This document shows, piece by piece, positions 47,975-64,000 of a stretch of 64,000 bases of DNA; within the stretch, counting starts at the first letter, position 1; every line of letters begins with the position of its first letter. Origin of the DNA: an uncultured cyanobacterium (GTDB taxonomy: Bacteria; Cyanobacteriota; Cyanobacteriia; PCC-9006; JAAUQQ01); NCBI GenBank assembly GCA_963718615.1, contig OY970368.1, positions 512,001 to 576,000 on the forward strand. The letters are read 5' to 3'. The notes below the pieces were generated by a model. That model worked only from the letters and a program-made list of their open reading frames with translations, did not search any database and had not been told where the DNA came from. Position numbers and translations under genes: made by a program.

Positions 47975-47986
47975 TGCATCGTTCTC
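47942..47986. repeat. 15-nt triplication of the GST translation-start region
   Basis: CATTGCATCGTTTTC x2 + CATTGCATCGTTCTC. Confidence 0.9.
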
Positions 47987-48054
47987 CCAGAAGGCTTTCA
48001 GTCCCCGTCACCTTAATCAGTCTGGCCTCTGGCAATCAAGCGATCGCCCGCATC

Positions 48055-48078
48055 CTATCCATCAGTTTCATTCATAGC
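48055..48078. promoter_or_regulatory. putative LysR binding site between divergent GST and LysR genes
   Basis: T-N11-A (48062-48074) within CTATCCATCAGTTTCATTCATAG. Confidence 0.4.
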
Positions 48079-48159
48079 TTTCATTCAAGCGCCCCGTTTC
48101 TCTCCTTCCTGCGCTCCACTATGCTGAGAATGCGCCCTATCTCATGCGTTGCCCGCCCC

Positions 48160-49092
48160 ATGAACCTCTCCCAAATCCGCGCCGTGATTGCCGTCGCTGA
48201 GCAGAAAAACTTCAGCGCGGCTGCCCTGGAATTGGGTCTTTCGCAATCCGCAGTCAGCCACGCGATCGCCACTTTAGAACAGGAACTGGGTGTGACGTTG
48301 TTTAGTCGCGGTCGGTATGGAGCGGTGTTAACGCCAGCGGGCGATCGCATTGTTCAGCAAGCCCGCTTGGTCCTCAATCATTTAAATAACATGACCCTCG
48401 AAGCCTATAAACATCGAGGGTTGGAGGGTGGGGAGGTTCGTGTCGCCACCTTTCGCAGCGTTGCCACCCATCTGTTACCTCAGGTGATTGTCCAGTTTAA
48501 CCAGCAGTTCCCCGACATTACGGTCACGCTCATTGAGCGGGAACATTACATCGCGATCGAGCATTGTCTACGCCATGGAGAAGCTGATATTGGCTTTACC
48601 TATCACACCGCAGAAACGAACGATTTAGAAACTTTTGAAGTTATTCACGACGAATACCTTGCCCTTTTCCCACCGACAATTCAGGCTCCCCCGGAAAGAC
48701 TAACCTGGGAAGATTTTACAACGATGCCAATTTTACTGGTTCCTTGTTTACCCTGCGGAATCGGTCTGCATCAGCACCTCACGCAACATGCTCCGCAGTT
48801 AGCCACGAATAGTTCCATTCGAGAAGACTCGACTGCTGTTAGCATGATCCACCGAGGGCTCGCCATCGGCATTTTTCCTTGGCTGGCAGCAGAACCAATT
48901 CCCCCCGTAATTCACCGCCGTTCGCTTCCCGTCCCTCATAAGCGAGTCATCATTGCAGCCCGCGTAATCGATCGGCTTCATTCTCCTGCAGTTTTTGCCT
49001 TTTGGGAAGAATTGCAGCGTCATGCTCCGTTTCCCCATCGATTATTAGCATCCCAGGGCCCTATCGAACCTCATCCCATCAAACTAAATTGA
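48160..49092 (+). CDS. LysR-family transcriptional regulator
   Basis: MNLSQI...NFSAAALELGLSQSAVSHAIATLEQELG..LFxR HTH; substrate-binding domain. Confidence 0.93.
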   Translation: MNLSQIRAVIAVAEQKNFSAAALELGLSQSAVSHAIATLEQELGVTLFSRGRYGAVLTPAGDRIVQQARLVLNHLNNMTLEAYKHRGLEGGEVRVATFRSVATHLLPQVIVQFNQQFPDITVTLIEREHYIAIEHCLRHGEADIGFTYHTAETNDLETFEVIHDEYLALFPPTIQAPPERLTWEDFTTMPILLVPCLPCGIGLHQHLTQHAPQLATNSSIREDSTAVSMIHRGLAIGIFPWLAAEPIPPVIHRRSLPVPHKRVIIAARVIDRLHSPAVFAFWEELQRHAPFPHRLLASQGPIEPHPIKLN

Positions 49093-50557
49093 AATCCTCT
49101 AGTCGAATTCGTTTGACTTGTCGAGCATATTTCCAGGTAAAATCAGGCCAGTTATTAATCACTTTACCCGATTCATTTTTGTACCAGCTTTGACAGCTAG
49201 AGCTCCACACCAGTCGCTGCATATCCTCTTGTAGCTTGGCGTTATGGTTGGCCATCACCTCTGACTTAACATCTAAATATTTTAGATTTTTTTGCTTGAT
49301 GAGCTGTAGCAATTGAACAATATAGTCAACCTGTTTTTCAATCATATAAACAATTGAACTATGCCCTAATCCCGTATTCGGCCCAAAGAGCAGAAAGAAA
49401 TTAGGAAAACCAGAAACCATCATGCCAAAATAAGCCTCTGGACCCATTTTCCAAGCCTGGGAAAGCATTTTTCCAGCCACCCCTTCTAGCTGGATGGGAT
49501 GCAAAAATGCATTAGATTTAAAGCCTGTACCAAAAATAATCACATCCACAGGATACTGCTTACCATCCGCTGTAATAATTTCCTTTGGAGTGACTTTGGC
49601 TATCCCATGACTAATGACCTCAACAGTTGGTCGGGCTAAAACTTCATAATAATCATTGGAAAGCAAGATCCGTTTACAGCCAACGGTATATTCGGGTAAT
49701 AACGAATCGTCAAGATTTACTTTTTTTAGTCGACTTAAGATTTTCTGAGTTAGCCTTTGCTGAAATAGTTTTCCGGAAAGCGTCCCCTGGAGAAAAACTC
49801 TAAATCGCATCTCTAAGGTCCAATAAATCCAAAAACGGCGCAGCGCTGGAGCCCAAGGAAAATGATGATTCAACCACTGCTCAACGGACGAGAAGTTATT
49901 GTTGCCTTTTGTCGCAACCCACTGGGGCGATCGCTGAAAAATATAGGTTTTAGCCGCTTTTTCCGCAACCGGGGGAACAAATTGAACGGCACTAGCCGCA
50001 TTACCCACCACAGCCACCGTTTTGCCCTGCAAATCACATTGATGATCCCAGCGCGCTGAATGAAACTGAGTTCCGGCAAATTGGTTCAATCCTTCGATGG
50101 CAGGTATGGAAGGATGATGCAGTTGTCCACAGGCCGAAACCAAAAACTTGGTGTAAAAGATTTGCCCCTGAGAGGTTATCACTTGCCATTGACCATCCGT
50201 CTCTTGAAAAACCGCTTGAGCAATTTCAGTTTTAAACTTGATATGGGCATAGAGCCCATATTTGCTGGCACAATGTTCCAAATACTCTAGAATTTCAGCC
50301 TGCTCGGCATAGCGAAATGACCAATCTTTCTTTTGCTCAAAGGAGTAGGAGTACAAAAAAGAAGGCACATCACAGGCAGAACCTGGATAATGATTATCTC
50401 GCCAAGTTCCTCCAACTCGGCTTTCCTTCTCGCAGATTATAAAATTATCGATCCCTGCTTGCTTCAGACGAATGCCCATGCATAAACCAGCAAACCCAGA
50501 ACCAATAACAACAGCATCTAGAGTACTGATTGAACTAGTAGAGTCATTAGAAATCAT
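49079..50557 (-). CDS. type I Baeyer-Villiger / flavin-containing monooxygenase
   Basis: GSGFAG, GGTWxxNxYPG, BVMO fingerprint FAGTQFHSARW, GNAASA. Confidence 0.9.
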   Translation of the reverse strand: MISNDSTSSISTLDAVVIGSGFAGLCMGIRLKQAGIDNFIICEKESRVGGTWRDNHYPGSACDVPSFLYSYSFEQKKDWSFRYAEQAEILEYLEHCASKYGLYAHIKFKTEIAQAVFQETDGQWQVITSQGQIFYTKFLVSACGQLHHPSIPAIEGLNQFAGTQFHSARWDHQCDLQGKTVAVVGNAASAVQFVPPVAEKAAKTYIFQRSPQWVATKGNNNFSSVEQWLNHHFPWAPALRRFWIYWTLEMRFRVFLQGTLSGKLFQQRLTQKILSRLKKVNLDDSLLPEYTVGCKRILLSNDYYEVLARPTVEVISHGIAKVTPKEIITADGKQYPVDVIIFGTGFKSNAFLHPIQLEGVAGKMLSQAWKMGPEAYFGMMVSGFPNFFLLFGPNTGLGHSSIVYMIEKQVDYIVQLLQLIKQKNLKYLDVKSEVMANHNAKLQEDMQRLVWSSSCQSWYKNESGKVINNWPDFTWKYARQVKRIRLEDFNLV

Positions 50558-50591
50558 GAATAAATATAGATCCTAGTAAAGATTTAGCGCG

Positions 50592-51488
50592 TCAATTCGA
50601 TGGATCAGAGGGAAACTCGGTCATCAACCAATCCACTAACAGCTTTTGGTATGTTTCTGTACATTCTGCAAAAAACATATGACCCACCCCCGGCAATAAC
50701 GTTAAGGTCGTATTCGGAACCTCCTGAGCGATCGCCAGGGCCTGTTGCATCGGGATAAGAGGGTCTTGCTCACCCGCAACAACAGCCAATGGGGCCTGAA
50801 TCTTTTGCAACAAAGGGCCAATATCCATCTCTCTCAGCCCCGCAAACAAATAGAGCAAATGATCTAAATTGTGCCGAGCTGCATCAAGTCGCATAGGCTC
50901 TAAGGTTTCTGACAAGACGGAAGCCTTAAAATAAGCACGACGGTTCGCTGCATTCAAGGCAGATGCAATTCGGTATCTGCGCGAATTAGAGGCACCAAAA
51001 CGGAGGATCCCCTTAAATAATAAACGACCCGGCAGAGGACCACAAGCTAGCTTTTGTAAAAAACCAAACAAGCCAGTCCAGGCTCCCTGATAAAACCCTG
51101 AAATGCAGAGGACAGAGCGAATTTGCTGGGGTCTCAGAGCTGCCAAAAGCAAGGCAGCAAAGGCTCCTGTAGAATGGCCCACGACCATAACGGGCTGATT
51201 ACCTACAAGCTGACCAATCGCCGTGCCTAAAACCTGTGCAAACATTTCCGGTGTCACACGGGCTGGGCCGAAGTCCTCGGGAGCGATCGCCGGAAAATGT
51301 CCAGGCAAACTCAGGGAGTACCAAGGATAGTTCTGCCGAATTTCTGCCGGTAGACTCGGGGGCCAAAAGTGGATCGAAGCCGTGATGCCATGTAAAAAAA
51401 TAATGGGAGGACCAGGCTTGCTGGGGTTGCCCGCGATCGCGACCAAGCGATGTTTTTCTACTTCCAACTCGATAAGATGCTGTTCCAT
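50592..51488 (-). CDS. alpha/beta-fold hydrolase (esterase-like)
   Basis: FLHG oxyanion loop, GHSTG nucleophile elbow, GEQD, GVGH. Confidence 0.88.
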   Translation of the reverse strand: MEQHLIELEVEKHRLVAIAGNPSKPGPPIIFLHGITASIHFWPPSLPAEIRQNYPWYSLSLPGHFPAIAPEDFGPARVTPEMFAQVLGTAIGQLVGNQPVMVVGHSTGAFAALLLAALRPQQIRSVLCISGFYQGAWTGLFGFLQKLACGPLPGRLLFKGILRFGASNSRRYRIASALNAANRRAYFKASVLSETLEPMRLDAARHNLDHLLYLFAGLREMDIGPLLQKIQAPLAVVAGEQDPLIPMQQALAIAQEVPNTTLTLLPGVGHMFFAECTETYQKLLVDWLMTEFPSDPSN

Positions 51489-51548
51489 CGGGATTTAGTG
51501 CCAATCTAAGATAATAGAAAAACGCTCACGGATCCCTATTGTGAGACC

Positions 51549-53354
51549 CTATTGCTGATCGCTCAAATCCTGTTCAGATAGACCTAAGACGCTATTTCTA
51601 ATACCAAAAACATTGGTCGGATCGTTGGCATCTTTAAGCTTTTTGATCAAGCTTAAACTGGTCGGCGAGACCGTATCTTTTAGAAAATCCTTACGAAGCT
51701 TACCAACACCGTGGTGATGGGAAATAGAGCCCCCATTTTTTAGAATAGTTTGCCGCAGCGCATAGTGAATTTTATTCAGGATTTCTTCAGCATGGGGAAC
51801 ATCTTTGGCGTAGAAGCCATTCATAAAGTATATACAGACACCAGTATGATAGATTTGCGAAATTCGATAGGATAAAAACGGAGAACCCGGAAGATTGTGC
51901 TGTTGATGCTGCACTTGTAATTCTTCTCGGACCTGATGCACAACTTCATGAATCTTGCTCCAAGGAACTGTTGTTTCGAAGGTTTCACCTAGAATATGGA
52001 GCGAAGCTAGAAAGTCCCGAATATAGGCGATCGCAAACGTCAGATTGTATCCCCGTTTGCCATTAGTTGAACCACCGGAAACAGCTCCAAATTTTTTAGC
52101 CAGTTGATTAATACTTGTTTTTTGATACGCGACTTCTGGGGCAGTCCCCTCCATCACCAAGGTTGCTGCCACCATCTCACGCGGTTCAAACTTAAGAACA
52201 TCATGGAGATAGAAAAACTTTGCTTTATTCTTCCACTTTGCTTTAGGAGTTTCAGTTGATCTTAACGCTTGTCCAAACTGAAACTGTCCATTGTCAACCA
52301 GGCGAACACTGGCCGGTATAAAGTTAGTTTGTGACAGTTCTCGTAAAAACTCAACCCCTTTTGCTAAGGTGGGAAATACTAAGGAACCATAATGCTGAAC
52401 ATCGGGTAATCGATGGATTCGAATAATGGCTTTGGTGATGAGGCCCAAATTCCCTTCACTACCAAAGAGCAGTTGCTGCAATTGCATCCCCATCGACATA
52501 CGTGGACAAGCGATTTTTTGCTCAACCAGTCCCATAGGGGTAAGCAACGTAACACTCTCCACAACCTCTTCAATATTGCCATAGCGGTTTTTTTTCATGC
52601 CGCTAGCATTGGTCGAAATCCATCCCCCTAAGGTCGAGAGCTCTAGGCTATCGGGCTCATGACCACAGGTAAAACCTGCCTCTTTTAGGGTTTCTTCTAA
52701 CTGAGTTCCAGTAATCCCTGCTTGCACACAGGCTTGCATGTTTTTAGCATCAATCCATTCCACTTTATTCATTCTTTTGGTGTTGACGGCAACGATCATG
52801 CGCGTCTCCTCAGCGGGCAACATTAAAGCCCCACTGACACAGGTTCTGCCCCCAACGGGAACCAAACAGACATCAAACTGAAGCGCCAACTGAATCAATT
52901 GCTCGGCATCTGATTCTGATTCACAGAAAAAAACCATATCTACCCCACGGGGCAGTTGCTCAAAAAGCACTGGAAAAATTTCTTCCGCACCAGCTTGTCC
53001 GTGACTATGGCTCAGCCGCACAGAATCATCAAACGTGTAGGTATGCGGCGGAAAATGCTTTGCGATCGCCTCACAAAATCCTTCATTGCAGTGGGGAGGC
53101 GCGATGGGCTTCTCTTGCACCTCTGTCCGCAGGTCATTGAGATCCAAGGATACCCCTAGCCCCTTCTCTAGATAGGGCAAAAGATAGGGCATAGAATAGC
53201 CGCAAATCTGATAACGATCGCCAGTGAGGCTAACCTCACGCGTCTCAGGATTAACTACAAATTCCGTGTCTGAATATCCCCAACGATGCGACCAAAGCCC
53301 GCTGCCGTCCGACTGAGAGAGGTTTTCCATTTCCGAATTTTGAGTTTTGAACAT
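51549..53354 (-). CDS. alkyl-dihydroxyacetonephosphate synthase-like FAD-linked enzyme
   Basis: GHEPDSLELSTLGGW, ASGMKKNRYGNIE, GSEGNLG, ASVRLVDN, GETFETTVPW, CIYF, GGSISHHHGVGK. Confidence 0.88.
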   Translation of the reverse strand: MFKTQNSEMENLSQSDGSGLWSHRWGYSDTEFVVNPETREVSLTGDRYQICGYSMPYLLPYLEKGLGVSLDLNDLRTEVQEKPIAPPHCNEGFCEAIAKHFPPHTYTFDDSVRLSHSHGQAGAEEIFPVLFEQLPRGVDMVFFCESESDAEQLIQLALQFDVCLVPVGGRTCVSGALMLPAEETRMIVAVNTKRMNKVEWIDAKNMQACVQAGITGTQLEETLKEAGFTCGHEPDSLELSTLGGWISTNASGMKKNRYGNIEEVVESVTLLTPMGLVEQKIACPRMSMGMQLQQLLFGSEGNLGLITKAIIRIHRLPDVQHYGSLVFPTLAKGVEFLRELSQTNFIPASVRLVDNGQFQFGQALRSTETPKAKWKNKAKFFYLHDVLKFEPREMVAATLVMEGTAPEVAYQKTSINQLAKKFGAVSGGSTNGKRGYNLTFAIAYIRDFLASLHILGETFETTVPWSKIHEVVHQVREELQVQHQQHNLPGSPFLSYRISQIYHTGVCIYFMNGFYAKDVPHAEEILNKIHYALRQTILKNGGSISHHHGVGKLRKDFLKDTVSPTSLSLIKKLKDANDPTNVFGIRNSVLGLSEQDLSDQQ

Positions 53355-53544
53355 AGCTTATTTATTTAGGATGAATGCGTTATTGAAGATAAAAGCTTTC
53401 GAACTGTAGCATGAGGGCTTTTAAAATATTATGCTGGGCGCTTTGAGAATACAGAGTCTTTTTTAGCAGATCCTTAGATTCTTTTTCAACAGAGCTCCGT
53501 AAAATACAATAACCCTATAGTCGCAAAATTCAAGGACCGAGTGC

Positions 53545-54207
53545 TCAACGAACCATGATTTTCTGCGAGCCCGTAAAGGTTCGATAGTGAGGCTGATCGG
53601 CGATCGCAAGCAACTCAGAGTCACCTTTGCTATCGCCATAGGCATAAAGATAATATTGCTGCAAATCACCTAACAAAGCTGTTAAACGAATAACCTTTTC
53701 TTTTCCATAACAACTATCTCCGAGCAGTTTTCCCGTGATTTTATCCTGTTCAACCGCGAGCTGAGTCGCAATGACATCGTTAATGCCGAGCCTTATTGCC
53801 CAAGGTCGAAGATAAACCTCTAAGTTTGCACTGACCACCACCACACGATGCCCTTGAGCTTGATGCCAAGCCAATCGCTCCATCGCCTGGGAATTGAGTA
53901 ATTTGGGCAATGTCACCTCAGAAAACTGAGCCGCCGCTGCTTGTAGGTCTGGCAATGACCAGCCTCGAAAATATTGGGTAACGAGGGTTTCTTTGATAAA
54001 GTGGTTTGAGCAACGACCTAAAACATAGGAAATCACGGCACGGCGTTTCTTCAACAAACCTTGACGCATTTTTTGGGCTGTACAAGCCGACTTCACAAAC
54101 GGTAAAAACGAGTCTTTCCGGGTCAATGTGCCATCAAAATCAAAGACCGCGATGGTCGGTCGCTGAACGAGATTCGACATGGAAATAGAAGGCGAAGAAT
54201 CTAGCAT
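53545..54207 (-). CDS. HAD-IB family phosphatase
   Basis: FDFDGTLT, VVSA, GKEK, YGDSKGD. Confidence 0.9.
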   Translation of the reverse strand: MLDSSPSISMSNLVQRPTIAVFDFDGTLTRKDSFLPFVKSACTAQKMRQGLLKKRRAVISYVLGRCSNHFIKETLVTQYFRGWSLPDLQAAAAQFSEVTLPKLLNSQAMERLAWHQAQGHRVVVVSANLEVYLRPWAIRLGINDVIATQLAVEQDKITGKLLGDSCYGKEKVIRLTALLGDLQQYYLYAYGDSKGDSELLAIADQPHYRTFTGSQKIMVR

Positions 54208-54244
54208 GAACGGCTAGGGTAAAGAATTTTGTAGATTGTATAGC

Positions 54245-55033
54245 TTACAGGGTTTGGGCAAGCGGTAATGGCTGAGATGAAGTATCAGCATTCGCCATCT
54301 CCTCAATTCTAGAACGAATTTCGTCCACAATCTCGCGGCAGAGTCTTCGATTGCTCTCGACCTCCAATCTCGCTTGATAGGGCGCAATATCAATCGGACG
54401 ACCAAACTGAATACGAATAGGATGTCGTTTGGGAAAATGCGCCCCTTTAGGAAAAGCCTGAAAACTTCCTTCAATATGAACCGGTATAATTGAGACATTG
54501 AGCTGCATTGCCAAAAAACCAGTCCCGAGCTTAAACGGCTGTAGTTTCCCTGTTTTTGAGCGTGTCCCCTCCGGAAATAGCAAGATCATTTTATTTTGAG
54601 CGACAAGATCCTGACAAGACTTAAGCGCATCTGTCGAATGGCCCTGTCGCTGAAAGGGGATCATGTTTAAAACATGTTGGCAAATTTTCCCTTTGATAGG
54701 ATGATCAAAGAAATAATCCTTGGCTGCCAAGCTATAGACCTGATTCATATAGCGATTTGCTGCGGCAATAGTTGCTGGCCCATCCAAATGACTAGAATGG
54801 TTGGCCGCCAAGAGAACAGGTTGATCCTTAGGAAGGTTATCTAAACCTTCGATTTTAAGCTGAAACCACATGCGCAGAATAAACTGGCACATGTACCAAA
54901 TCAAAGCCTGTAGGACAGGATTAAGAATTCTTTGAAATAAGACAATACTTAATTTTTGATGAAGATTAGGAGCTAACCCAAAATTTGCCGAAAGCGTAGT
55001 CTTCAGGGGAACCATCAATTTTAAGGGAAGCAT
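54245..55033 (-). CDS. glycerolipid (PlsC/LPLAT-family) acyltransferase
   Basis: NHSSHLD, FPEGTRS, PFKLG. Confidence 0.9.
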   Translation of the reverse strand: MLPLKLMVPLKTTLSANFGLAPNLHQKLSIVLFQRILNPVLQALIWYMCQFILRMWFQLKIEGLDNLPKDQPVLLAANHSSHLDGPATIAAANRYMNQVYSLAAKDYFFDHPIKGKICQHVLNMIPFQRQGHSTDALKSCQDLVAQNKMILLFPEGTRSKTGKLQPFKLGTGFLAMQLNVSIIPVHIEGSFQAFPKGAHFPKRHPIRIQFGRPIDIAPYQARLEVESNRRLCREIVDEIRSRIEEMANADTSSQPLPLAQTL

Positions 55034-55279
55034 CAATTTATTTTTTATCCGTTCAAAAGTGATTCGATCTTGTCCAGATAGACCCTTTTCTCATCGATAA
55101 TCTAGCTTAGCCAAATTTCGAAACGGTTGCCTGCAAAGGCAAACATCAAAGCCTAACACAATATTCCTATGTGAGACTTTACTGGCAATCAGGCGCTAGT
55201 TTTCCTGCAAAACGTCGACTTGTTGAAATCCTCACAGAATCGTCTTTCAATTGAAGCGAGAGTAAAGTTTTGCTCAGTA

Positions 55280-56251
55280 TCAAGTCAAATTTTTTCTCAC
55301 CCAGTCGCCGGTTGTAGCCATTCCTTCTTCTAGATTAATTTGAGGCTGATACCCTAGCCGATGACGTGCTTTTTCGATCGAATAGGGATAACGTCGTGTA
55401 GAAATATCAATTGTGTCCGCAGTGGCTCCTATTTTGTTATTAGGAAAAAGTTTTAAGATTATTTTTGCCAGTATTGCAGGAGCTGAAGGGTATTTTGGTA
55501 AATTTTCGATTTTTGCGAGTCTTTGATAATAGTCTTTCCAAGTCGTTTCACAGCCATCGGTGATATTGAAGGCTTCACCATAGGCTTCCTGCTCAAGGGC
55601 AAGAAAGATAGCGTCCACTAAATTGTCCACATAGACGTGGTTCATGACGCCTCGACCATTATTGAGCAGGAAGAACTTACGCGATCGCATCATCTCCAAA
55701 GGACGAATCACCCAGGGCACAGAGCGAGGACCATAGACATCTCCCGCTCGGATGACAATGACCCCAAAGTCCGGTGGGTTGTTGAGGGCTAGAACTTGCT
55801 GATCAGATTCTAGTTTTGTGAGGCAGTAAGGATTTTTACCCTGATAAAACGGTCCAGACTCCGTTACATACTTGGGATATCGAACCCCATAAACCACCAC
55901 GCTAGAAAGCTGAACAAAGGCTTTAACCTTGGCCTGTTTTGCAGCATGGGCCATCGTTAAAGTGCCTTCTACATTCACTTTGCGGAACTCCGCTAGGTCC
56001 CCTTCTTCTTTTACGATCGCAGCCGTATGAATAACCAGATCTATATCCTTACAAGCCCTGTGGGCAATTTCTGGATCAGTCACGCTACCTGCGATCATTT
56101 CGATGCCAAGCCGTCCTGCCAAATCGCTGGTATCTGGCGATCGCTGTAGTCCTCTAACCTTGATGCCTCTGGCTACAGCCAACTCCGCAATTCGCTGTCC
56201 AATACAACCACCAATACCCGTAATCAACAGAGTTTTATGACTTAGGTCCAT
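55280..56251 (-). CDS. extended SDR (3-beta-HSD / NAD-dependent epimerase-like reductase)
   Basis: TGIGGCIG, HTAA, LSS, YCLTK, VYGP. Confidence 0.85.
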   Translation of the reverse strand: MDLSHKTLLITGIGGCIGQRIAELAVARGIKVRGLQRSPDTSDLAGRLGIEMIAGSVTDPEIAHRACKDIDLVIHTAAIVKEEGDLAEFRKVNVEGTLTMAHAAKQAKVKAFVQLSSVVVYGVRYPKYVTESGPFYQGKNPYCLTKLESDQQVLALNNPPDFGVIVIRAGDVYGPRSVPWVIRPLEMMRSRKFFLLNNGRGVMNHVYVDNLVDAIFLALEQEAYGEAFNITDGCETTWKDYYQRLAKIENLPKYPSAPAILAKIILKLFPNNKIGATADTIDISTRRYPYSIEKARHRLGYQPQINLEEGMATTGDWVRKNLT

Positions 56252-56458
56252 AAATAACCACAATTAATGATTAAGACTCAAAGCACGTCCCAACACGTAC
56301 CAATATGACAAGAAATATAGCCCTGTATTACACATGCAGAGTGTAACATAGAGAACCAGGGAGAACCAAGGAGTTCCATTTGCTGACTCCTTGGTCGTTC
56401 CATCTCAGCAAACGGTTCGATCGTCCACCCAAGATCAAATGACAATCAGGAATGACAA

Positions 56459-56986
56459 TCAGGTTCGTTCCTTGATTGCCTGAATGACTTGAGCCGTGCA
56501 ATCTTCTAGACTGGTTTCCTGGGTCTTGCACTCCACCTCAGGATTGAGAGGGGGCTCATAGGGATCATCAATGCCAGTGAACTGCTTAATCTCTCCAGCC
56601 CGCGCTTTTTTGTATAAACCCTTGACATCCCGTGCTTCGCAGACTTCCAAGGGAGTACTGACATAGACCTCAATAAAGGCATCAATCTGAGCCCGGATCT
56701 CTTCTCGAATCGCACGGTAGGGCGAAATCACCGGCACCAGCACAATGACGCCGTTTCGAGCTAGGAGTTTGGTGACAAATCCAATCCGGCGGATATTCGT
56801 GTCCCGGTCTTCTTTACTAAACCCAAGGTCTTTCGTCAGTCCTTCGCGGACGATGTCACCATCAAGGACCTCTACTCGATATCCTTGCGATCGCAGTTGT
56901 TGCTCGACTTCAGCGCAAATCGTTGATTTTCCAGAACCGCTTAAACCTGTAAACCAAACTGCAAGACCTTTATGAAAATTGCTCAT
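56459..56986 (-). CDS. cysC: adenylyl-sulfate kinase
   Basis: WFTGLSGSGKST, LDGD, RDVKGLY, FTGIDDPYE. Confidence 0.95.
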   Translation of the reverse strand: MSNFHKGLAVWFTGLSGSGKSTICAEVEQQLRSQGYRVEVLDGDIVREGLTKDLGFSKEDRDTNIRRIGFVTKLLARNGVIVLVPVISPYRAIREEIRAQIDAFIEVYVSTPLEVCEARDVKGLYKKARAGEIKQFTGIDDPYEPPLNPEVECKTQETSLEDCTAQVIQAIKERT

Positions 56987-57382
56987 GCCCTACCTAGAAA
57001 ATCTACGGGGTTAAATTGTGTTCTGTAATTTTATCTGAAAACGTCAGACGTCTAACTTCGCCTTGAATTCAGGGTTATCAGATTGAAGATTCGGTAAACC
57101 CAGGTAAAACTACGGGCTTCGGATGTATCTCCATGATATTTTGATGCAAGGCAAGACCCAAATGCCAATTGATATTACGTCCTAATTATGAAGCTTTTGT
57201 AAGGCTTTTCTGCCCTCAATGATGAAATTCTGACTGATTTTCTAATGGGATTGCCTAAAGTGGGACTCTCATAGGAGATCATATGCAGGGACAGATACGT
57301 TGATTATTAATTACGATGCAGCACAATTGCATTTAGATATATCTTATACATCAGCCTGATGCAGGCTTAGGGAAGCAGTCTA

Positions 57383-58234
57383 ATGAAAGTAGCTATTCTT
57401 GCAGGTGGTCTGGGAACGCGGCTAGAGGAAGAAACCACAGAAAAACCAAAGCCAATGGTTGAGATCGGTGGAAAACCGATCCTGTGGCACATTATGAAGC
57501 ACTATTCCCATCATGGGTTTGATGACTTTGCGATCGCCCTAGGCTACAAAGCAGAAGTCATCAAAAAATACATGGTGGACTATTGTTCCCTCAATAGTAA
57601 TCTTACGGTCAACCTCCGCAACGGCACCGTCCAGCGCCACGATGGCAACAGCCCCAACTGGAATATTGACTTGATCGATACGGGACTCCATACCAATACC
57701 GGGGGACGCATCAAGCGCTTGGCTCCTTACCTCGGTAATGAAACCTTCATGTTGACCTGGGGGGATGGGGTTTCCGATCTGGACATCAATCAGTTGCTGG
57801 CATTCCATCGTTCCCATGGTAAACTCGCGACCCTCACAGCGGTTCATCCCCCTGCTCGGTTTGGCCATTTGGATCTTAATGGGGCTCAGGTGACGGAATT
57901 TTCTGAAAAGCCCCAAACCCGTGAAGGATGGATTAATGGTGCCTTTTTTGTCCTAGAGCCTGGTATTTTTGACTATATTGACAGTGACGCAACCCAATGG
58001 GAAAAAGAACCGCTGGAGCGTCTAGCCCAAGATGGACAACTCATGGCCTATCAGTACCGAGGCTTCTGGCAATGTATGGATACCTTGCGGGATAAGCGCC
58101 GCCTAGAAAGTCTGTGGGCATCGGGAAACGCACCTTGGAAAACGTGGGAGGAAAAGGATGAGAGTCTTACTAACCGGGCATCTGGGATACATTGGAACCG
58201 TAATGGTTCCCCTGTTGCTCGCCAAGGGGCATGA
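57383..58234 (+). CDS. rfbF: glucose-1-phosphate cytidylyltransferase
   Basis: LAGGLGTRLxEET..PKPM, TGGRIKR, INGAFF, GFWQCMDT.RD, APWK. Confidence 0.92.
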   Translation: MKVAILAGGLGTRLEEETTEKPKPMVEIGGKPILWHIMKHYSHHGFDDFAIALGYKAEVIKKYMVDYCSLNSNLTVNLRNGTVQRHDGNSPNWNIDLIDTGLHTNTGGRIKRLAPYLGNETFMLTWGDGVSDLDINQLLAFHRSHGKLATLTAVHPPARFGHLDLNGAQVTEFSEKPQTREGWINGAFFVLEPGIFDYIDSDATQWEKEPLERLAQDGQLMAYQYRGFWQCMDTLRDKRRLESLWASGNAPWKTWEEKDESLTNRASGIHWNRNGSPVARQGA

Positions 58235-59180
58235 GGTTGTTGGCCTCGACAGCGATCTCTTTCGCGGCAGTACCTTTGGGGGGGGGATTTGCCCCATTCC
58301 AGAACTGCGGAAAGATATTCGGGACGCTGTCGCAGCGGATCTAGAGGGCTTCGACGCAGTGCTTCACTTGGCCGGGTTATCCAACGATCCCCTCGGTCAT
58401 TTTAATCCTCAGCTCACGGATGAAATTAACCATCTCGCGACGGTACGGCTAGCGGAATTGGCCAAAGCCGCAGGGGTATCTCGGTTTGTGTTTTCTTCCT
58501 CTTGCAGCAACTATGGCGCGGGCGGGCAGGACTGGCTGACGGAGGACTCCCCCCTCAATCCGATGACCCCCTACGGTCGGTCCAAGGTTGACTCAGAGCA
58601 TTCGCTCAACCAGATGGCGGACGATCGCTTTAGTCCCACCCATCTGCGCAATGCCACGGCCTTTGGAGCCTCTCCCCGAATTCGCTTTGACCTGGTGCTG
58701 AATAATCTGATGGCTTGGGCTTTCACCACAGGTCGGGTCTATATCAAAAGCGACGGCACACCTTGGCGACCGATTGTGCATATCGAAGACATTGGTCGAG
58801 CCTTTATTGCGGTCATGGAAGCCCCTCGGGACAAGGTCCATGGTGAAGCCTTTAATGTGGGCCGTAATCAGGATAATTATCGCGTGCGCGAGATTGCCAA
58901 CATTGTCCAAGCCACGGTACCGGGCTGCGAAATTGAGTATGCGCCCGATGGCGGACCGGGGCCGAGCTGCTACCGCGTGGATTGCAGCAAGATCCAACGG
59001 GTGTTGCCGGAGTTTCAGCCCCAGTGGGATGCTTGCAAAGGGGCAAAACAACTTTATGAAACCTTCCAGAAAGTGGGGTTAACCCTCGAAGAATTTGAGG
59101 GACCAAAATACAGCCGAATCGCTCATGTGCGATCGCTCCTGCAATCCGGCAGTCTAGGAGATCAGCTCCGCTGGCGCTAG
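58158..59180 (+). CDS. NAD-dependent nucleotide-sugar epimerase/oxidoreductase (SDR)
   Basis: TGHLGYIG, HLAGLSND, SSCSNYG, YGRSK. Confidence 0.88.
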   Translation: MRVLLTGHLGYIGTVMVPLLLAKGHEVVGLDSDLFRGSTFGGGICPIPELRKDIRDAVAADLEGFDAVLHLAGLSNDPLGHFNPQLTDEINHLATVRLAELAKAAGVSRFVFSSSCSNYGAGGQDWLTEDSPLNPMTPYGRSKVDSEHSLNQMADDRFSPTHLRNATAFGASPRIRFDLVLNNLMAWAFTTGRVYIKSDGTPWRPIVHIEDIGRAFIAVMEAPRDKVHGEAFNVGRNQDNYRVREIANIVQATVPGCEIEYAPDGGPGPSCYRVDCSKIQRVLPEFQPQWDACKGAKQLYETFQKVGLTLEEFEGPKYSRIAHVRSLLQSGSLGDQLRWR

Positions 59181-59237
59181 CGCCATTCATCTATATAAAC
59201 CTCATAAACCTTCTATAACTATCCCTCTCACCCTTCT

Positions 59238-60467
59238 ATGGATAATCCCAACGTCGCCTGTCACGCCTGCAAAAATCCCCAGCTTGATTTGATTCTTTCC
59301 TTTGGAAAGACCCCCCTAGCGGACGCGCTGCTATCCGCTACCCAGTTGCAGGAGCCAGAAATTTTTGCGCCGCTGGACTTAGCCTTTTGCCCCCAATGCG
59401 GATTGGTTCAAATTACCGAAGTTATCGATCCAGAAATTCTCTTTTGCCGAGACTATCCTTACTATTCGTCCGTTTCCAAATCCTTGATGGAGCACTTTGA
59501 AGCGAGTGCTAAGGCCCTCATCTTGGCTAGAAATTTGACGCAAGCGAGCCTCGTGGTTGAAGCCGCCAGCAATGATGGTTACTTACTCAAACACTTTGCC
59601 CAATCGGGAATTCCGGTTCTGGGCATCGACCCCGCTGAGGGGCCGGTTCAAGTGGCTCAGGCCGCTGGGATTCCGACGCTCCGCACTTTTTTTGGTGAAG
59701 AACTTGCCCAGCAGTTGCGCCAAGCGGGCAAGCGGGTGGATGTCTTTTTGGCCAATAATGTTTTGGCCCATGTACCTGATCTCAATGGCTTTGTCGCAGG
59801 GATTTCTCTACTCCTCAAAGACAGCGGCGTCGCGGTGATTGAAGCACCCTATGTCGTCGATTTGGTGGAGCAAGGCGAATTCGATACGATTTACCATCAG
59901 CACCTTTGCTATTTCTCTGTCACCGCCCTGGATCGGCTCTTCCGTCGCCATGGGCTCTTTCTCAACCGGATCGAACGCACTTCTATCCATGGGGGCTCGC
60001 TGCGGCTTTTTGTGGAACCCCGAGAGGCGGTGGAAGCATCGGTAACGGCGCTCTTGCAAATGGAACAGGCGCAGGGGGTCGATCGACTCGATTATTATCA
60101 TGATTTTGCAGCGCGGGTGGCGATGATTAAGCGATCGCTCCTCACCCTCCTTCAAGATCTCAAACATCAGGGTAAACGCATTGCGGCCTACGGCGCAGCG
60201 GCAAAGGCGACCACCCTCTTGGCCTACATCGGTCTGGATCAGCAGTATCTAGACTACGTGGTTGATCTCAATCCCTATAAACACGGACGCTATATGGGCG
60301 GCAACCATTTACCAATTTTCCCACCTAGCAAACTCCTGGAAGATCAGCCGGATTACGTATTGATTTTGGCCTGGAACTTTGCAGAGGAAATTATGCGACA
60401 GCAATCTACCTATCGTGACCAAGGGGGACGCTTTATCGTGCCAATTCCTGAGCCCCAGATTATCTAA
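59238..60467 (+). CDS. NDP-hexose C-methyltransferase-family protein (Zn-finger + SAM domain)
   Basis: CHAC...[46 protein letters not shown]. Confidence 0.87.
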
Positions 60468-60553
60468 CTTATCTAACTCTAACCCTCACCGATCTGGCTC
60501 AGCGCCACTGCGAACCGATTCAGCCTCTCCACTCAATTCTAGGAGCTCTGCCC

Positions 60554-61780
60554 ATGACTGTTGCGTCTGCCTCTGCGCCCCATCTCAGCACTTCGGACAA
60601 TGATCGCCCCATCTCCTGCCCCAACTGCGGCCATGATGACCTCACGCCGTTCTACGAAGTCCTAGATGTGCCGGTCCATAGCTGTTTGATGATGCCAAGC
60701 CCCGCCGCAGCTCTAGACTTTCCACGGGGTGATGTCAAGCTAGCCGTTTGCAACCACTGCGGTTTTATTACCAATACGGCATTTGATGCCAAGTGGTCTG
60801 CCTATGCTCCCAATTATGAGGACCAACAGAGCTATTCACCGACCTTTAATCAATTTGCCCAGGACCTCGCCCAGCGGTTAATCGACAAGTACGATTTGCA
60901 CAATAAAGACATCGTTGAAATTGGCTGTAGCAAAGGCGACTTTCTTTTGTTGCTCTGCGAATTGGGCAATAACCGTGGTGTTGGCATTGACCCATCGGTT
61001 GTCCCTAGACGGGTGCAAAGTGAGGCCGCCGATCGCGTCACCTTTATCCAAGACTACTACTCCGAAAAGCATGCCGAATATGTCGGCGATTTTATCTGTT
61101 GTCGCCACACCCTAGAACATATTCAGCCCACACAAGAATTCCTCAAAACCGTACGGCAGTCCATTGGCGATCGCCTGCATATCAACGTATTTTTTGAAAT
61201 TCCTGAAACCCTGCGTGTGCTTCGAGACCAAGCCTTCGAAGACATCTACTATGAGCACTGCTCGTACTTCACGCCGGGTTCCTTGGCCCGACTGTTTCGA
61301 GCCTGTGGGTTTGAAATCACGGACCTCTACCTAGGCTATGGGGACCAGTACTTGCTGATTGAAGCCCAACCCATGGCCACGCCTTCCACAACCCTTCATG
61401 CCCTTGAGGAAAGCCCTGAAGCTACAGTCCAGGAAGTTCAAAACTTCGTACATAAAATCACAGAGAAGTTGAACTATTGGAAAGATCACTTAGCAACTAT
61501 GCAGCGCCAGGGAAAACGCGTTGTGGTTTGGGGCTCAGGCTCAAAATGCGTTGCGTTCCTGACAACGCTCAATACCCTGGACCAAGTGCAACATGTGATC
61601 GACATCAATCCCCACCGTCACGGCCAATTTATTCCAGGGATTGGCAAGGAGATCAAGCCCCCAACGTTTTTGAAAACCTATCAACCCGATGAGATTATTG
61701 TCATGAATGGGATCTACTGCGCTGAAATCCAGCAAATGCTAGACGAAATGGGCGTTCAAGCTCAGCTTACCCCTTTATAA
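60554..61780 (+). CDS. second C-methyltransferase-family protein (divergent paralog)
   Basis: CPNC...CNHCG, EIGCSKG, HTLEHI, DIYYEH, WGSGSK. Confidence 0.82.
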   Translation: MTVASASAPHLSTSDNDRPISCPNCGHDDLTPFYEVLDVPVHSCLMMPSPAAALDFPRGDVKLAVCNHCGFITNTAFDAKWSAYAPNYEDQQSYSPTFNQFAQDLAQRLIDKYDLHNKDIVEIGCSKGDFLLLLCELGNNRGVGIDPSVVPRRVQSEAADRVTFIQDYYSEKHAEYVGDFICCRHTLEHIQPTQEFLKTVRQSIGDRLHINVFFEIPETLRVLRDQAFEDIYYEHCSYFTPGSLARLFRACGFEITDLYLGYGDQYLLIEAQPMATPSTTLHALEESPEATVQEVQNFVHKITEKLNYWKDHLATMQRQGKRVVVWGSGSKCVAFLTTLNTLDQVQHVIDINPHRHGQFIPGIGKEIKPPTFLKTYQPDEIIVMNGIYCAEIQQMLDEMGVQAQLTPL

Positions 61781-62083
61781 CAGTCACCAATCTTTAATTT
61801 TATGAATCCTTAACAGAGGCCCGAGCTGGTATGTACTTAACGTAAAGGGAAAAGCATTAGATCGGGATTTCCACTAGAATGATCTATGAATTGAACCATT
61901 CAATAATGCCACCATCAATCTCAATCCTACCTCAAAATCTTTGATTGGTTTATTTCAGTACATCCCGGTCTAATCAGGCGTTATCTGTAAACTTACACTT
62001 CTGACTAAAATACCGATCCTCTATGTTTCTGATTGAGAGACATATGCTGTTGGCCTGAGTCAGAAAGGAATACTTATTTAACT

Positions 62084-63379
62084 ATGCGAGTTGTCATTTT
62101 AACGGTTGGCTCAAGGGGTGACATTCAACCCTGTCTCGCCCTAGGATTGGGGCTCAAAGCTGCCGGTCATCAGGTTTGCATTGCGACCGAGCGAATTTAC
62201 CAGGAGTGGCTGACCCAAGAAGGATTGGAGTATGCCTACCTCCCAGGGGATACTAAAAAGCGTCTGGCGGATGAACCTTGGTTTAAATTACTAGAAGAAA
62301 CGCGCGATCGCCCCATTCTATCGGCCTATCGTGCCTATCGTGAGTTTCTCTTACCAACACTACGGGAGCTGCTCGATGCCGCCTGGGACGCCTGCCAAGG
62401 GGCAGACGCAATTATTGGCCTACCCACGGTCTATGCCGGTAGCCACATTGCCGAGAAGCTAGGAATTCCCTTCTTTGGCACTTGGACCTGCCCCTTCACC
62501 CCTACCCGATATTTTCCCCATTCCTGGTCCCGTCTCGCCCAGCAACAGTGGCTAGGTGGAACACTCAATCGGTTTACCTATTGGGTTCCTCAGTTTCTCG
62601 ATCAGAAAATGTTGATGGGGACCATTAACCAATGGCGCAAAGAGACCTTGAATCTGCCTAAAATGGGTGAAAATGGCGTCAATACCAGTTCCTTCCCGAC
62701 GCTTTATGGATTTAGTCCCAGCGTCGTCTCCCCGCCTCCAGACTGGGATAACAATGTTCATGTAACGGGCTACTGGCTGCTCAATCGCATCAGCTCGGTG
62801 CAGCCCCCCGAAGACTTAGTTAACTTTATTGCGGCAGGCTCCCCACCGGTTTACATCGGTTTTGGGAGTATTGGCGATCGCCATGCCACACACACCATTC
62901 AAACCGCAATTGATGCGGTGATCAAAAGCGGTCAACGGGCCGTTCTAGAAACAGGATGGGCACAGTTAAATCAACTCAATTTACCCCCACAGGTTTTTAA
63001 GTTAGATTCTGGCAGAGTTCCTCATGCTTGGCTCTTTCCCCGCATGGCAGCGTTAGTCCACCATGGCGGCGCAGGTACCACCGGTCAGGGGTTGCGCAAC
63101 GGCAAGCCAACGGTCGTTATTTATCAAAAATTTACGGATTACTGTTTCTGGGGACAACGCATTGCCGCATTGGGTGTTGGTCCTGAACCGATTTATATTG
63201 GTGATGTCACCGTCAATTCCCTCGCCCAGGCCATTGAAACCATGGTAACGGACGCCAACATGCAGAAGCGCGCAGCTCTACTAGGTGGACAAATTCGAGA
63301 CGAAGATGGTGTTGCTCGGGCGATCGAGCTCTTTCATCAGCATGCTAATCACCCAAAAGCCACCTATACCTATGCCTAA
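62084..63379 (+). CDS. GT1 glycosyltransferase (sterol glucosyltransferase / GT28_N-like)
   Basis: GSRGDIQP, VYIGFGS, PHAWLF, HHGGAGTT. Confidence 0.9.
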   Translation: MRVVILTVGSRGDIQPCLALGLGLKAAGHQVCIATERIYQEWLTQEGLEYAYLPGDTKKRLADEPWFKLLEETRDRPILSAYRAYREFLLPTLRELLDAAWDACQGADAIIGLPTVYAGSHIAEKLGIPFFGTWTCPFTPTRYFPHSWSRLAQQQWLGGTLNRFTYWVPQFLDQKMLMGTINQWRKETLNLPKMGENGVNTSSFPTLYGFSPSVVSPPPDWDNNVHVTGYWLLNRISSVQPPEDLVNFIAAGSPPVYIGFGSIGDRHATHTIQTAIDAVIKSGQRAVLETGWAQLNQLNLPPQVFKLDSGRVPHAWLFPRMAALVHHGGAGTTGQGLRNGKPTVVIYQKFTDYCFWGQRIAALGVGPEPIYIGDVTVNSLAQAIETMVTDANMQKRAALLGGQIRDEDGVARAIELFHQHANHPKATYTYA

Positions 63380-63478
63380 GCGTAAAGATTGCATGAATGA
63401 CCTGAGTGAATGACGTTGCTACAGACCTTCACGACATAACATAATTTCGTTGCACCTAGGCCATTTTTTGGAAACTCC

Positions 63479-64000
63479 ATGAGTCACTTCGACACCATAT
63501 CAAAAAAGGCATTGTTCGTCGTTGCTCATCAAGATGACGAAGTTTTTATTGTGTCTAGGATCAACAAACATTTAAGCGAGGGCGATCGAATCTTTGTTAT
63601 CTGGACTGCAGCATCCTATCAAAAAGGAGAAACCTTTAAAAATACGAGAATCCAAGAGTCAAAGACTCTGATGAAAAAGCTCGCAATTCCCGAAGATCAA
63701 TTTGATTTCCTCATGTATCCCGATGGTTCAACCCATCTCCACATTCCCAATCTCATTGCAGACTTAAAGCAAAGAATTCAGTTCATTCAACCCGATACGG
63801 TTTATATTCCAGCCTATGAGGGAGGGCACATTGACCATGACACAGCGCATTACTGCGTGGTTCAAGCCATCCGTCAGCTCAATTCCAGTATAGAAATCTA
63901 CGAATTTCCAGAATACAGCGGCTATGGAACTCCACTGGGCCTACTGCCGCTTCGAATGCGCCGCTACCCCGAGACACTAAAGACCCAATGTAGAACGCTC
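63479..64000 (+). CDS. PIG-L/LmbE-family deacetylase, N-terminal part (runs off window)
   Basis: Manual translation MSHFDTISKKALFVVAHQDDE...RIQES...YPDG...YEGGHIDHD shows the HxDD and HxDH metal motifs. Confidence 0.85.
   Translation, partial: MSHFDTISKKALFVVAHQDDEVFIVSRINKHLSEGDRIFVIWTAASYQKGETFKNTRIQESKTLMKKLAIPEDQFDFLMYPDGSTHLHIPNLIADLKQRIQFIQPDTVYIPAYEGGHIDHDTAHYCVVQAIRQLNSSIEIYEFPEYSGYGTPLGLLPLRMRRYPETLKTQCRTL

Follow-up and report, generated by a model that had tools for sequence, protein, structure and literature searches.

The right-hand end of a 64,000-nucleotide stretch from the genome of an uncultured cyanobacterium (GenBank assembly GCA_963718615.1, contig OY970368.1, positions 512,001 to 576,000 of the forward strand) carries a gene for alkyl-dihydroxyacetonephosphate synthase (AGPS) among genes for lipid and sugar metabolism. 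We refer to the whole stretch as the window (G000:C1:512001-576000 in the closed, 6.10-Mb source genome, G000). A sequence-only reading had recognized 13 genes here in two divergent arms, and we found all of them to be uninterrupted open reading frames (ORFs) that lie in the place and order it gave and carry the domains it had named. Domains were called with Pfam and NCBIfam profiles, and structural matches were obtained by searching solved structures. The gene set runs on beyond the edge of the window, as that reading had anticipated, and ends ~29 kb further along near genome position 605426, where two small ORFs and then dnaB follow. The 13 genes are best read as the left-hand third of a single ~45-kb biosynthetic gene cluster that begins at window position 49079. 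The gene set points to an undescribed sulfated ether glycolipid. The leftward arm contains AGPS, its putative partners and cysC:

51549..53354, minus strand: AGPS, 601 aa; FAD_binding_4 and FAD-oxidase_C domains; matches structure 4bby
53545..54207, minus strand: HAD-IB phosphatase, 220 aa; TIGR01490, 152 bits against a cut-off of 98; DFDGT and GDSKGD motifs
54245..55036, minus strand: stand-alone PlsC-type acyltransferase, 263 aa; PF01553; NHSSHLD (NHxxxxD) and FPEGTR motifs
55280..56263, minus strand: extended short-chain dehydrogenase/reductase (SDR) 'SDR1', 327 aa; Epimerase (PF01370, 1e-35) and 3Beta_HSD; weak OleD and HpnA matches
56459..56986, minus strand: adenylyl-sulfate kinase CysC; PRK00889, 287 bits, above cut-off

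AGPS is encoded by a single-copy gene in G000. The protein has an N-terminal extension ahead of its two Pfam domains, which span residues 139-277 and 317-583; this is the layout of vanillyl-alcohol oxidase (VAO)-type flavoenzymes. It matches guinea-pig AGPS (4bby) over residues 23-587 (E 2.2e-144) with ~50% identity over 565 residues. The match to 2uuu has an E-value of 1.2e-80, and the best non-AGPS flavoenzyme, a glycolate oxidase, reaches 2.9e-18. R351, Y509 and H546-548 align to Arg419, Tyr578 and His615-617 of the guinea-pig enzyme, which we take from the structural literature to be the catalytic AGPS residues, and all of them are invariant in the seven homologues aligned. By sequence, the product is a true alkyl-dihydroxyacetone phosphate (alkyl-DHAP) synthase orthologue and not merely "AGPS-like". 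Such an enzyme would replace the acyl chain of acyl-DHAP with a fatty alcohol, creating an ether bond. We consider it likely that this AGPS gives rise to some form of ether lipid derived from alkyl-DHAP. The alternative is a product without an ether, in which the acyltransferase esterifies a diol from the polyketide synthase (PKS) encoded beyond the window with a fatty acid, or the flavoenzyme is an oxidase. There is some precedent for this: in genome G633 an AT domain 46% identical to the acyltransferase lies in a FAAL-ACP-AT protein beside a PKS with no AGPS, and the mechanism of the ElbD-type enzyme is called unresolved in the available portion of PMC9131029. Such an outcome is very unlikely given the extent of identity to mammalian AGPS, the retention of all catalytic residues and the wide recurrence of acyltransferase-AGPS pairs.

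The genes beside AGPS encode plausible ether-lipid partners. The HAD-IB phosphatase is proposed to act as an alkyl-glycerol-3-phosphate phosphatase. Its 12 longer relatives are fusions with LPG_synthase_TM (10), with UbiA (1) and with SDR1 (1, in genome G459), and because 11 of them carry lipid-membrane domains (LPG_synthase_TM, UbiA) we tie this HAD clade to lipids. HAD genes also adjoin AGPS in G525, L054 and L062. A role as DHAP acyltransferase is proposed for the PlsC-type protein. As we read their domain layouts, the 120 longer relatives listed for it all carry the AT domain joined to an adenylation domain, a FAR-type reductase domain or both, and these are the architectures of ElbD-like and FAR-AT (FARAT) ether-lipid enzymes. 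PlsC genes adjoin AGPS in G459, G525, G574 and 38 of 80 metagenomic loci. SDR1 belongs to the NAD-dependent epimerase/dehydratase family, like the SDR of myxobacterial-type AGPS operons, and lies two genes from AGPS. It is a candidate alkyl-DHAP ketoreductase, with an aldehyde reductase or a sugar 4-keto reductase as alternatives; the assignment is ambiguous because homologues of SDR1 are also found where AGPS is missing and because a classical SDR takes its place in most of the metagenomic AGPS operons. The proposal that the left arm supplies each step of ether-lipid synthesis thus holds for AGPS, the acyltransferase, the phosphatase and a ketoreductase candidate, with the reductase ambiguous and the source of the fatty alcohol lying outside the window. 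The cluster cysC is the sole strong adenylyl-sulfate (APS) kinase gene in G000, and CysC is proposed to supply 3'-phosphoadenylyl sulfate (PAPS) to the sulfotransferases of the cluster.

The rightward arm encodes enzymes for making and transferring a sugar:

57383..58234, plus strand: glucose-1-phosphate cytidylyltransferase RfbF; TIGR02623, 378 bits against a cut-off of 300
58158..59180, plus strand: extended SDR 'SDR2', 340 aa; matches 6vo6, E 4e-32
59238..60467, plus strand: NDP-hexose 3-C-methyltransferase CMT1 (TylC3, KijD1, TcaB9 type); matches 4rv9, E 2e-84
60554..61780, plus strand: second C-methyltransferase-like protein, CMT2; Methyltransf_23 and partial Methyltransf_14
62033..63379, plus strand: glycosyltransferase GT1, sterol-glucosyltransferase type; Glyco_transf_28 and EryCIII-like_C; matches yeast 5xvm, E 2e-70
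63479..64000, plus strand: 5' part of a PIG-L/LmbE-family de-N-acetylase gene, 263 aa in full; PF02585; ends at genome position 576270

CMT1 contains Methyltransf_13 (PF08421), Methyltransf_23 (PF13489) and Methyltransf_14 (PF08484), the domain set of 3-C-methyltransferases. Pfam detected no zinc-binding N-domain in CMT2, which is 78% identical to its copy in G459 and 65% identical to that in G633. The start of SDR2 overlaps rfbF, and this overlap is kept in G459. The structure that SDR2 matches is presumably a nucleotide-sugar C4 dehydrogenase, and SDR2 is presumed to be a CDP-hexose C4 oxidase or epimerase. We rejected its assignment as a CDP-glucose 4,6-dehydratase (RfbG): the TIGR02622 match had an E-value of only 9.7e-5 and fell below cut-off, and a whole-genome TIGR02622 search gave no match at 570158-571180, where SDR2 lies, and found the true RfbG at 3.00 Mb. 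From its resemblance to sterol glucosyltransferases, we infer that GT1 would take a lipophilic alcohol as its acceptor. PIG-L had no solved-structure match at E <= 0.01. PIG-L genes were found only in the AGPS-bearing clusters of G000 and G459 and in none of seven AGPS-less clusters. Elsewhere in G000, a second RfbF-SDR2 pair lies at ~149,471-152,700 (54% and 46% identity), and the region at ~3,001,466-3,006,000 holds the canonical RfbG (TIGR02622, 481 bits) with a CMT1 paralogue (46%) and an RfbF (40%).

Past the window, the rest of the PIG-L gene is followed by genes for GT2, the protein hyp253, an MFS transporter and the sulfotransferase ST1. Next, on the minus strand, are ST2, a SAM methyltransferase, a TylF-type O-methyltransferase and ST3. 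These are followed by a GT2 paralogue, a classical SDR (SDR299), a thioester reductase, a discrete acyl carrier protein (ACP) and a PfaD-family enoyl reductase. The last genes encode a KS-CLF-AT protein, a KR-DH protein, FabG and a 2137-aa KS-AT-4xACP protein. By domain architecture, this PKS is a synthase of the heterocyst-glycolipid/polyunsaturated fatty acid (hgl/pfa) type; the likeness rests on that architecture (KS-AT-4xACP, KR-DH, KS-CLF-AT, PfaD, ACP plus thioester reductase, SDR) and on homology to PKS clusters in seven other Cyanobacteriia. The pairing of a PfaD-family enoyl reductase (TIGR02814, 650 bits against a cut-off of 449) with a terminal thioester reductase (TIGR01746, 355 bits against 213) is a trait of hgl islands. 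The thioester reductase gene occupies genome positions 587669-589114, 22 kb from AGPS, and has its own ACP (PF00550, GLDS motif). We propose that the ACP and the thioester reductase are the source of the fatty alcohol that AGPS needs, by reductive release.

The tailoring genes in this region are consistent with a decorated lipid. Three sulfotransferase genes just past the window, of which ST1 is weakly like hydroxysteroid/alcohol sulfotransferases, back the sulfation that the sequence-only reading had considered possible. The sulfation theme is supported by these three genes, by the sole strong APS kinase and by a SulP permease in the G459 cluster. Two O-methyltransferases are also encoded here. 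GT2 shows similarity to GT21, and its best NCBIfam match is a weak one to HpnI (84 bits against a cut-off of 310). In hopanoid (HpnI/HpnK) and GPI (PIG-A/PIG-L) biosynthesis, N-acetylglucosamine (GlcNAc) is transferred to a lipid and then de-N-acetylated. An HpnI-like GT2 likewise adjoins a PIG-L-family deacetylase in our cluster and, by analogy, these neighbours suggest a glucosamine (GlcN) head group on a lipid polyol. Unlike those systems, the G000 cluster contains no hopanoid or inositol genes. The GT2 paralogue, hyp438 (438 aa, L002:10353-11669, minus strand), had the appearance of an unknown protein; this was rejected, since it is 26% identical to GT2 (E 2e-28). It has SPQ in place of the DSD of GT2, is 56% identical to its copy in G459 and, judging from this substitution, may be catalytically inactive. 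The conserved hyp253 (L002:2975-3736) had no Pfam or NCBIfam match, and its atlas matches were to unnamed clusters only.

We considered whether the right arm and the sulfotransferases might belong to the synthesis of an O-antigen or a sulfated polysaccharide, with the lipid genes as unrelated neighbours. Sulfated exopolysaccharides are known from cyanobacteria, and RfbF and C-methyltransferase genes do occur in the canonical RfbF-RfbG-CMT set at 3.00 Mb of the same genome. However, no polymerase, flippase or export gene for such a polymer was among the domains found by Pfam in the right arm and beyond. GT1 is closest to a sterol glucosyltransferase, an enzyme with a lipid acceptor, GT2 is weakly HpnI- and GT21-like, and in G459, G633 and G676 the sugar arm is again accompanied by hgl-type PKS genes. 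We therefore regard the polysaccharide explanation as highly improbable.

We found a relative of the whole cluster in G459, a metagenome-assembled genome (MAG) of Synechococcales cyanobacterium CRU_2_2, which belongs to the same family as G000 and to another genus. G459 carries 26 of the 30 genes queried (from the Baeyer-Villiger monooxygenase (BVMO) gene to the HglE-like gene; the discrete ACP was not among the 30) at 48-86% identity, beside dnaB and in shuffled order. Both arms thus occur together again in a second genus. A single-protein search of the genome contigs with AGPS returned one locus only, on the G459 contig. The AGPS-module genes of G459 are split between two sites within the tailoring and PKS genes: AGPS-PlsC-cysC occupies one end of the cluster, and SDR1 and HAD-IB are fused in one 560-aa ORF (L039:3041-4723, minus strand) that forms part of a co-directional array with O-methyltransferases, ST3, the thioester reductase and the PKS. 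This fusion is a Rosetta-stone link between SDR1 and HAD and supports their action in one pathway. The SulP sulfate permease gene, which includes a STAS domain (L039:1377-2903, minus strand), adjoins the fused ORF, and the cysC copy is 82% identical to that of G000.

AGPS is uncommon in related genomes. We found it in 5 of 400 other sampled Cyanobacteriia and in 22 of 400 members of a phylum-wide sample, all 22 outside the class Cyanobacteriia. In G525, PlsC-HAD-AGPS is divergent from a gene for a 1697-aa FAAL-ACAD-ACP-thioester-reductase protein (L031:7219-12312, minus strand), and in G574 PlsC and AGPS are adjacent. A FAR-like gene directly follows AGPS in 13 of 14 loci from non-photosynthetic members of the phylum, in which it is AGPS that shows 41-46% identity. 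AGPS has thus been paired independently with a reductive-release enzyme in G525 and in the FAR-bearing loci, which favours the same pairing in our cluster. The G525 locus, a second and different cyanobacterial AGPS cluster, also contains a DegT-type aminotransferase, a TetR regulator and an insertion sequence (IS) fragment. SDR1-like genes lie near AGPS in two of six extended loci. Among the 80 metagenomic AGPS loci (49-60% identity), PlsC precedes AGPS in 38, a classical SDR follows it in 52 and HAD is present in two; 34 have both flanking genes, and these fall in one well-supported clade of the AGPS tree. This compact PlsC-AGPS-SDR arrangement (L047-L126) recurs often in metagenomes, of which many are marine to judge from their contig names. 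It has the look of an ether-lipid operon widely distributed among bacteria, with a classical SDR instead of an extended one as the reductase. In a FastTree phylogeny of 100 AGPS sequences (four of 104 matches, shorter than 450 aa or containing stops, were dropped, and there were no eukaryotic or myxobacterial rows), the five sequences from Cyanobacteriia group with three metagenomic ones (support 89, no bootstrap). FAD-linked oxidases 28-31% identical to AGPS (L020-L024), from non-photosynthetic members of the phylum, form a separate clade.

Several observations weigh against a single pathway in which the AGPS product is the molecule that is glycosylated, and the most direct come from clusters that lack AGPS. 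GT2 homologues are present in 27 of 400 other Cyanobacteriia, and all seven that we examined adjoin hgl/pfa-type PKS genes. These seven AGPS-less PKS stretches all contain GT2; SDR1 (50-59% identity) occurs in three, GT1 with the CDP-sugar arm in two and a sulfotransferase in one. AGPS, HAD, CysC and PIG-L are found in none of them. The set that accompanies the PKS in G633 comprises CMT2, CMT1, SDR2, RfbF, GT1, two GT2s, four SDR1 paralogues and both O-methyltransferases, along with the FAAL-ACP-AT protein and a reductase beside the PKS. G676 has GT1-RfbF-SDR2 with the PKS, and five further genomes have GT2, SDR1 or a sulfotransferase with it. Whole-genome searches of G633, G676, G677, G011 and G032 revealed no AGPS orthologue, only FAD oxidases with 25-27% identity. 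Since the sugar arm and the PKS occur together without AGPS, theirs is the older association, and AGPS, PlsC, HAD, CysC and PIG-L are additions in the G000/G459 lineage. For the same reason, glycosylating the PKS product needs no glycerol ether. The sugars may decorate the PKS alcohol itself and not an alkylglycerol, and a second product may come from the AGPS module. The earlier proposal, in which the right arm adds a branched, methylated sugar to an alkylglycerol, is to be corrected on this point.

Other points on the same side concern the enzymes and the integrity of the cluster. The acceptor of the PlsC-type acyltransferase is ambiguous and may be DHAP, glycerol-3-phosphate or another alcohol. 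The classical SDR of the 52 metagenomic operons adds to the doubt about the reductase. The flanks of all 80 metagenomic loci contained no sugar, sulfotransferase or PKS genes, with many of the contigs being short. No homologue of the BVMO, the hydrolase, ST1 or the LysR regulator was found in the G459 cluster, and the G459 record, from a MAG contig whose name gives ~4.5x coverage, has a frameshift in PlsC. Finally, G+C content drops from ~0.55 to 0.41-0.50 over most of the cluster (genome, 0.523) and is a mosaic: the PKS genes have 0.53-0.58, and the AGPS module, GT2, PIG-L and the sulfotransferases have 0.38-0.47. This mosaic indicates that the cluster was assembled piecemeal.

These results raise the possibility of two products. 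The PKS alcohol would be glycosylated directly at C-1, as in heterocyst glycolipids and their C24 1,3-diol analogues, and then methylated and sulfated, while PlsC, AGPS and HAD would make a separate alkyl (plasmanyl-type) glycerolipid that serves as a membrane lipid or co-lipid. The homologous clusters with GT2, GT1 and the CDP-sugar arm, SDR1 and a sulfotransferase but no AGPS fit this explanation, as do the metagenomic PlsC-AGPS-SDR operons that stand alone and the difference in G+C between the PKS and the AGPS module. In addition, the parts of PMC11804610 available report tetracosane-1,3-diol and its glycosides from non-heterocytous cyanobacteria with hgl islands. However, the sole alcohol-forming reductase in the cluster is linked to the PKS, and its one paralogue is far off, at 5.30 Mb. 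In G459 the fused SDR1-HAD gene runs in one co-directional array together with the PKS and tailoring genes, with AGPS-PlsC at the other end of the cluster, and PIG-L and CysC are confined to AGPS-bearing clusters. We consider two products an unlikely outcome, though the main rival to a single pathway.

We lean, by a modest degree, towards one pathway in which the PKS alcohol is etherified to glycerol and then glycosylated, methylated and sulfated. The substrates, the order of the steps and the single product are proposed here from the gene content, the protein families, the catalytic residues of AGPS and the retention of the set in a second genus. The hgl/pfa-type PKS (KS-AT-4xACP, FabG, KR-DH, KS-CLF-AT, PfaD) would build a long, saturated and probably hydroxylated acyl chain, which the discrete ACP and the thioester reductase would release as a fatty alcohol. 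The PlsC-type acyltransferase would acylate DHAP, and AGPS would exchange the acyl group for the PKS alcohol to yield 1-O-alkyl-DHAP. After reduction of the ketone by SDR1 or the classical SDR299, the HAD-IB phosphatase would remove the phosphate to give 1-O-alkylglycerol. GT2 would then add GlcNAc to a free hydroxyl, whose position we leave as a conjecture, and PIG-L would convert it to GlcN. GT1 would add a CDP-activated, C-methyl-branched hexose made by RfbF, SDR2, CMT1 and CMT2. Two O-methyltransferases and three PAPS-dependent sulfotransferases, with PAPS provided through CysC, would finish the molecule, and the MFS protein would export it. A more specific and more tentative version, which we hold to be somewhat less probable than its negation, is that AGPS was recruited in an oxygenic cyanobacterial lineage into an hgl-type PKS pathway, giving a glycerol ether of a very-long-chain (hydroxy)alcohol that bears glucosamine, a doubly C-methylated hexose, O-methyl groups and multiple sulfates.

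We compared the cluster with known systems for ether lipids. The available portions of PMC9131029 and PMC13012113 describe the MXAN_1676-1675-1674 and elbA-E operons of Myxococcus xanthus, which between them encode AGPS, FAR, AT, an NAD-epimerase-family protein and HAD, with the HAD phosphohydrolase being part of the elb operon, and present genetic evidence for MXAN_1676 and elbD. A bacterial ether-lipid kit is also covered, in the portions available, by a sponge-symbiont preprint (10.64898/2026.06.23.733905) and by PMC13159169. As far as these sources describe it, our cluster has the same kit of AGPS, acyltransferase, SDR and phosphatase as the M. xanthus AGPS operon and the eukaryotic peroxisomal pathway (GNPAT, AGPS, FAR, acyl/alkyl-DHAP reductase). 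It differs in that the alcohol would come from a PKS with a discrete ACP and thioester reductase rather than from FAR acting on fatty acyl-CoA, and no FAR-AT (FAR-GNPAT) fusion lies beside AGPS as it does in myxobacterial-type operons. Moreover, the genes here lie inside a glycosylation, methylation and sulfation cluster, and the host is an oxygenic cyanobacterium. The elbA-E operon, in its available description, shares the HAD and NAD-epimerase-family partners, and the longer proteins nearest to our acyltransferase are ElbD-like, with the AT domain part of a FAR-adenylation-ACP-AT chain. Our cluster itself encodes no multidomain protein of the ElbD type, however, and the ether bond is assigned to AGPS. 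A search for PEDS1/CarF (PF10520) gave no match in G000, and the control genomes likewise gave none.

The PKS half of the cluster resembles the hgl islands of non-heterocytous cyanobacteria. The accessible text of PMC11804610 defines an hgl island as a cluster of homologues of at least 7 of the 19 hgl-island genes of Anabaena PCC 7120, and reports such islands, which it calls enigmatic, from non-heterocytous cyanobacteria in 35 of 2,279 genomes. These islands and our cluster have a PKS of the same architecture in common, including a terminal reductase and an enoyl reductase of the PfaD type, and we found homologous hgl-type clusters in other families of the class Cyanobacteriia. G000 adds AGPS, PlsC, HAD, CysC, PIG-L and three sulfotransferases. 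Export would be by an MFS protein, whereas no hgdBC-type ABC genes were seen in our cluster. The words "ether" and "sulfotransferase" are absent from the main text of PMC11804610, as distinct from its supplements. Our full-text literature searches, hgl-paper supplements aside, turned up no description of AGPS in oxygenic cyanobacteria or inside a PKS, glycosylation and sulfation cluster. The impression that no such combination had been described therefore stands for the combination as a whole, which is all that is new, since AGPS operons of bacteria and hgl islands of cyanobacteria have both been described before.

To our knowledge, cyanobacterial glycerolipids are regarded as ester-linked. 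If the proposed pathway is correct, the AGPS route of animals and myxobacteria can take a polyketide-derived alcohol. The pathway would also assign a product to one hgl island among those that PMC11804610 calls "enigmatic" in non-heterocytous cyanobacteria. The product would be a chemically stable sulfated ether glycolipid and a candidate biomarker. If AGPS was indeed recruited by the PKS pathway, this would be a new class of lipid, with cyanobacteria as a possible source of the non-isoprenoid alkylglycerol ethers of microbial mats and sediments.

The remaining features of the locus lie at the left border and between the arms:

47944..49092, plus strand: LysR-family regulator; Pfam HTH_1 and LysR_substrate; G+C 0.519, genome-like
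49079..50557, minus strand: type I BVMO, 492 aa; Pfam FMO-like and Pyr_redox_3
50592..51488, minus strand: alpha/beta-fold hydrolase or esterase, 298 aa; Abhydrolase_6 and Abhydrolase_1
56987..57382, 396 bp: divergent intergenic region between cysC and rfbF; presumed from the gene positions to hold the promoters of both arms

Type I BVMOs are marked by two Rossmann motifs and the fingerprint FxGxxxHxxxW[P/D]. The translation of the BVMO gene, which has no paralogue in G000, contains all three elements (GSGFAG, FAGTQFHSARWD and VVGNAASA), with the fingerprint reading F-x-G-x-x-x-H-x-x-x-W-D. The hydrolase gene lies 34 nt from the BVMO gene and 60 nt from AGPS, and its product also has a weak Patatin match (E 3.8e-5). 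Both genes are present in the left arm as the sequence-only reading had it. We regard them as accessory and not core, because both are absent from the G459 cluster; as a pair they were seen in G000 alone. On chemical grounds, it is possible that the BVMO and the esterase turn a ketone in the chain into an ester and then an alcohol. G459 has a patatin-like phospholipase (L037:1279-2400, minus strand) ~2 kb past AGPS, on the same side as the hydrolase and BVMO of G000. The LysR gene is convergent with the BVMO gene and overlaps its 3' end by 14 nt; it is possibly a local regulator and the left border of the cluster. A consensus scan of positions 48500-64000 gave 19 promoter-like sites (19.8 in shuffled sequences) and 18 terminator-like sites (17.1 in shuffled sequences), and the cysC-rfbF intergenic region showed no excess of promoter sites over shuffles in the same scan.

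Other parts of G000 carry distant relatives of the cluster genes. A thioester-reductase paralogue (39%) lies at ~5,302,878, near FabG-like genes. At ~5,658,713, 5,681,351 and 5,898,499 there are two more paralogues of GT2 (42-43%) and one of the sulfotransferases (40-44%). These distant genes may represent further lipid-tailoring loci. The border gene dnaB has no intein in G000 (471 aa, L003:18378-19793, minus strand) and contains one in G459 (664 aa, Intein_splicing, L040:9695-11689, minus strand).

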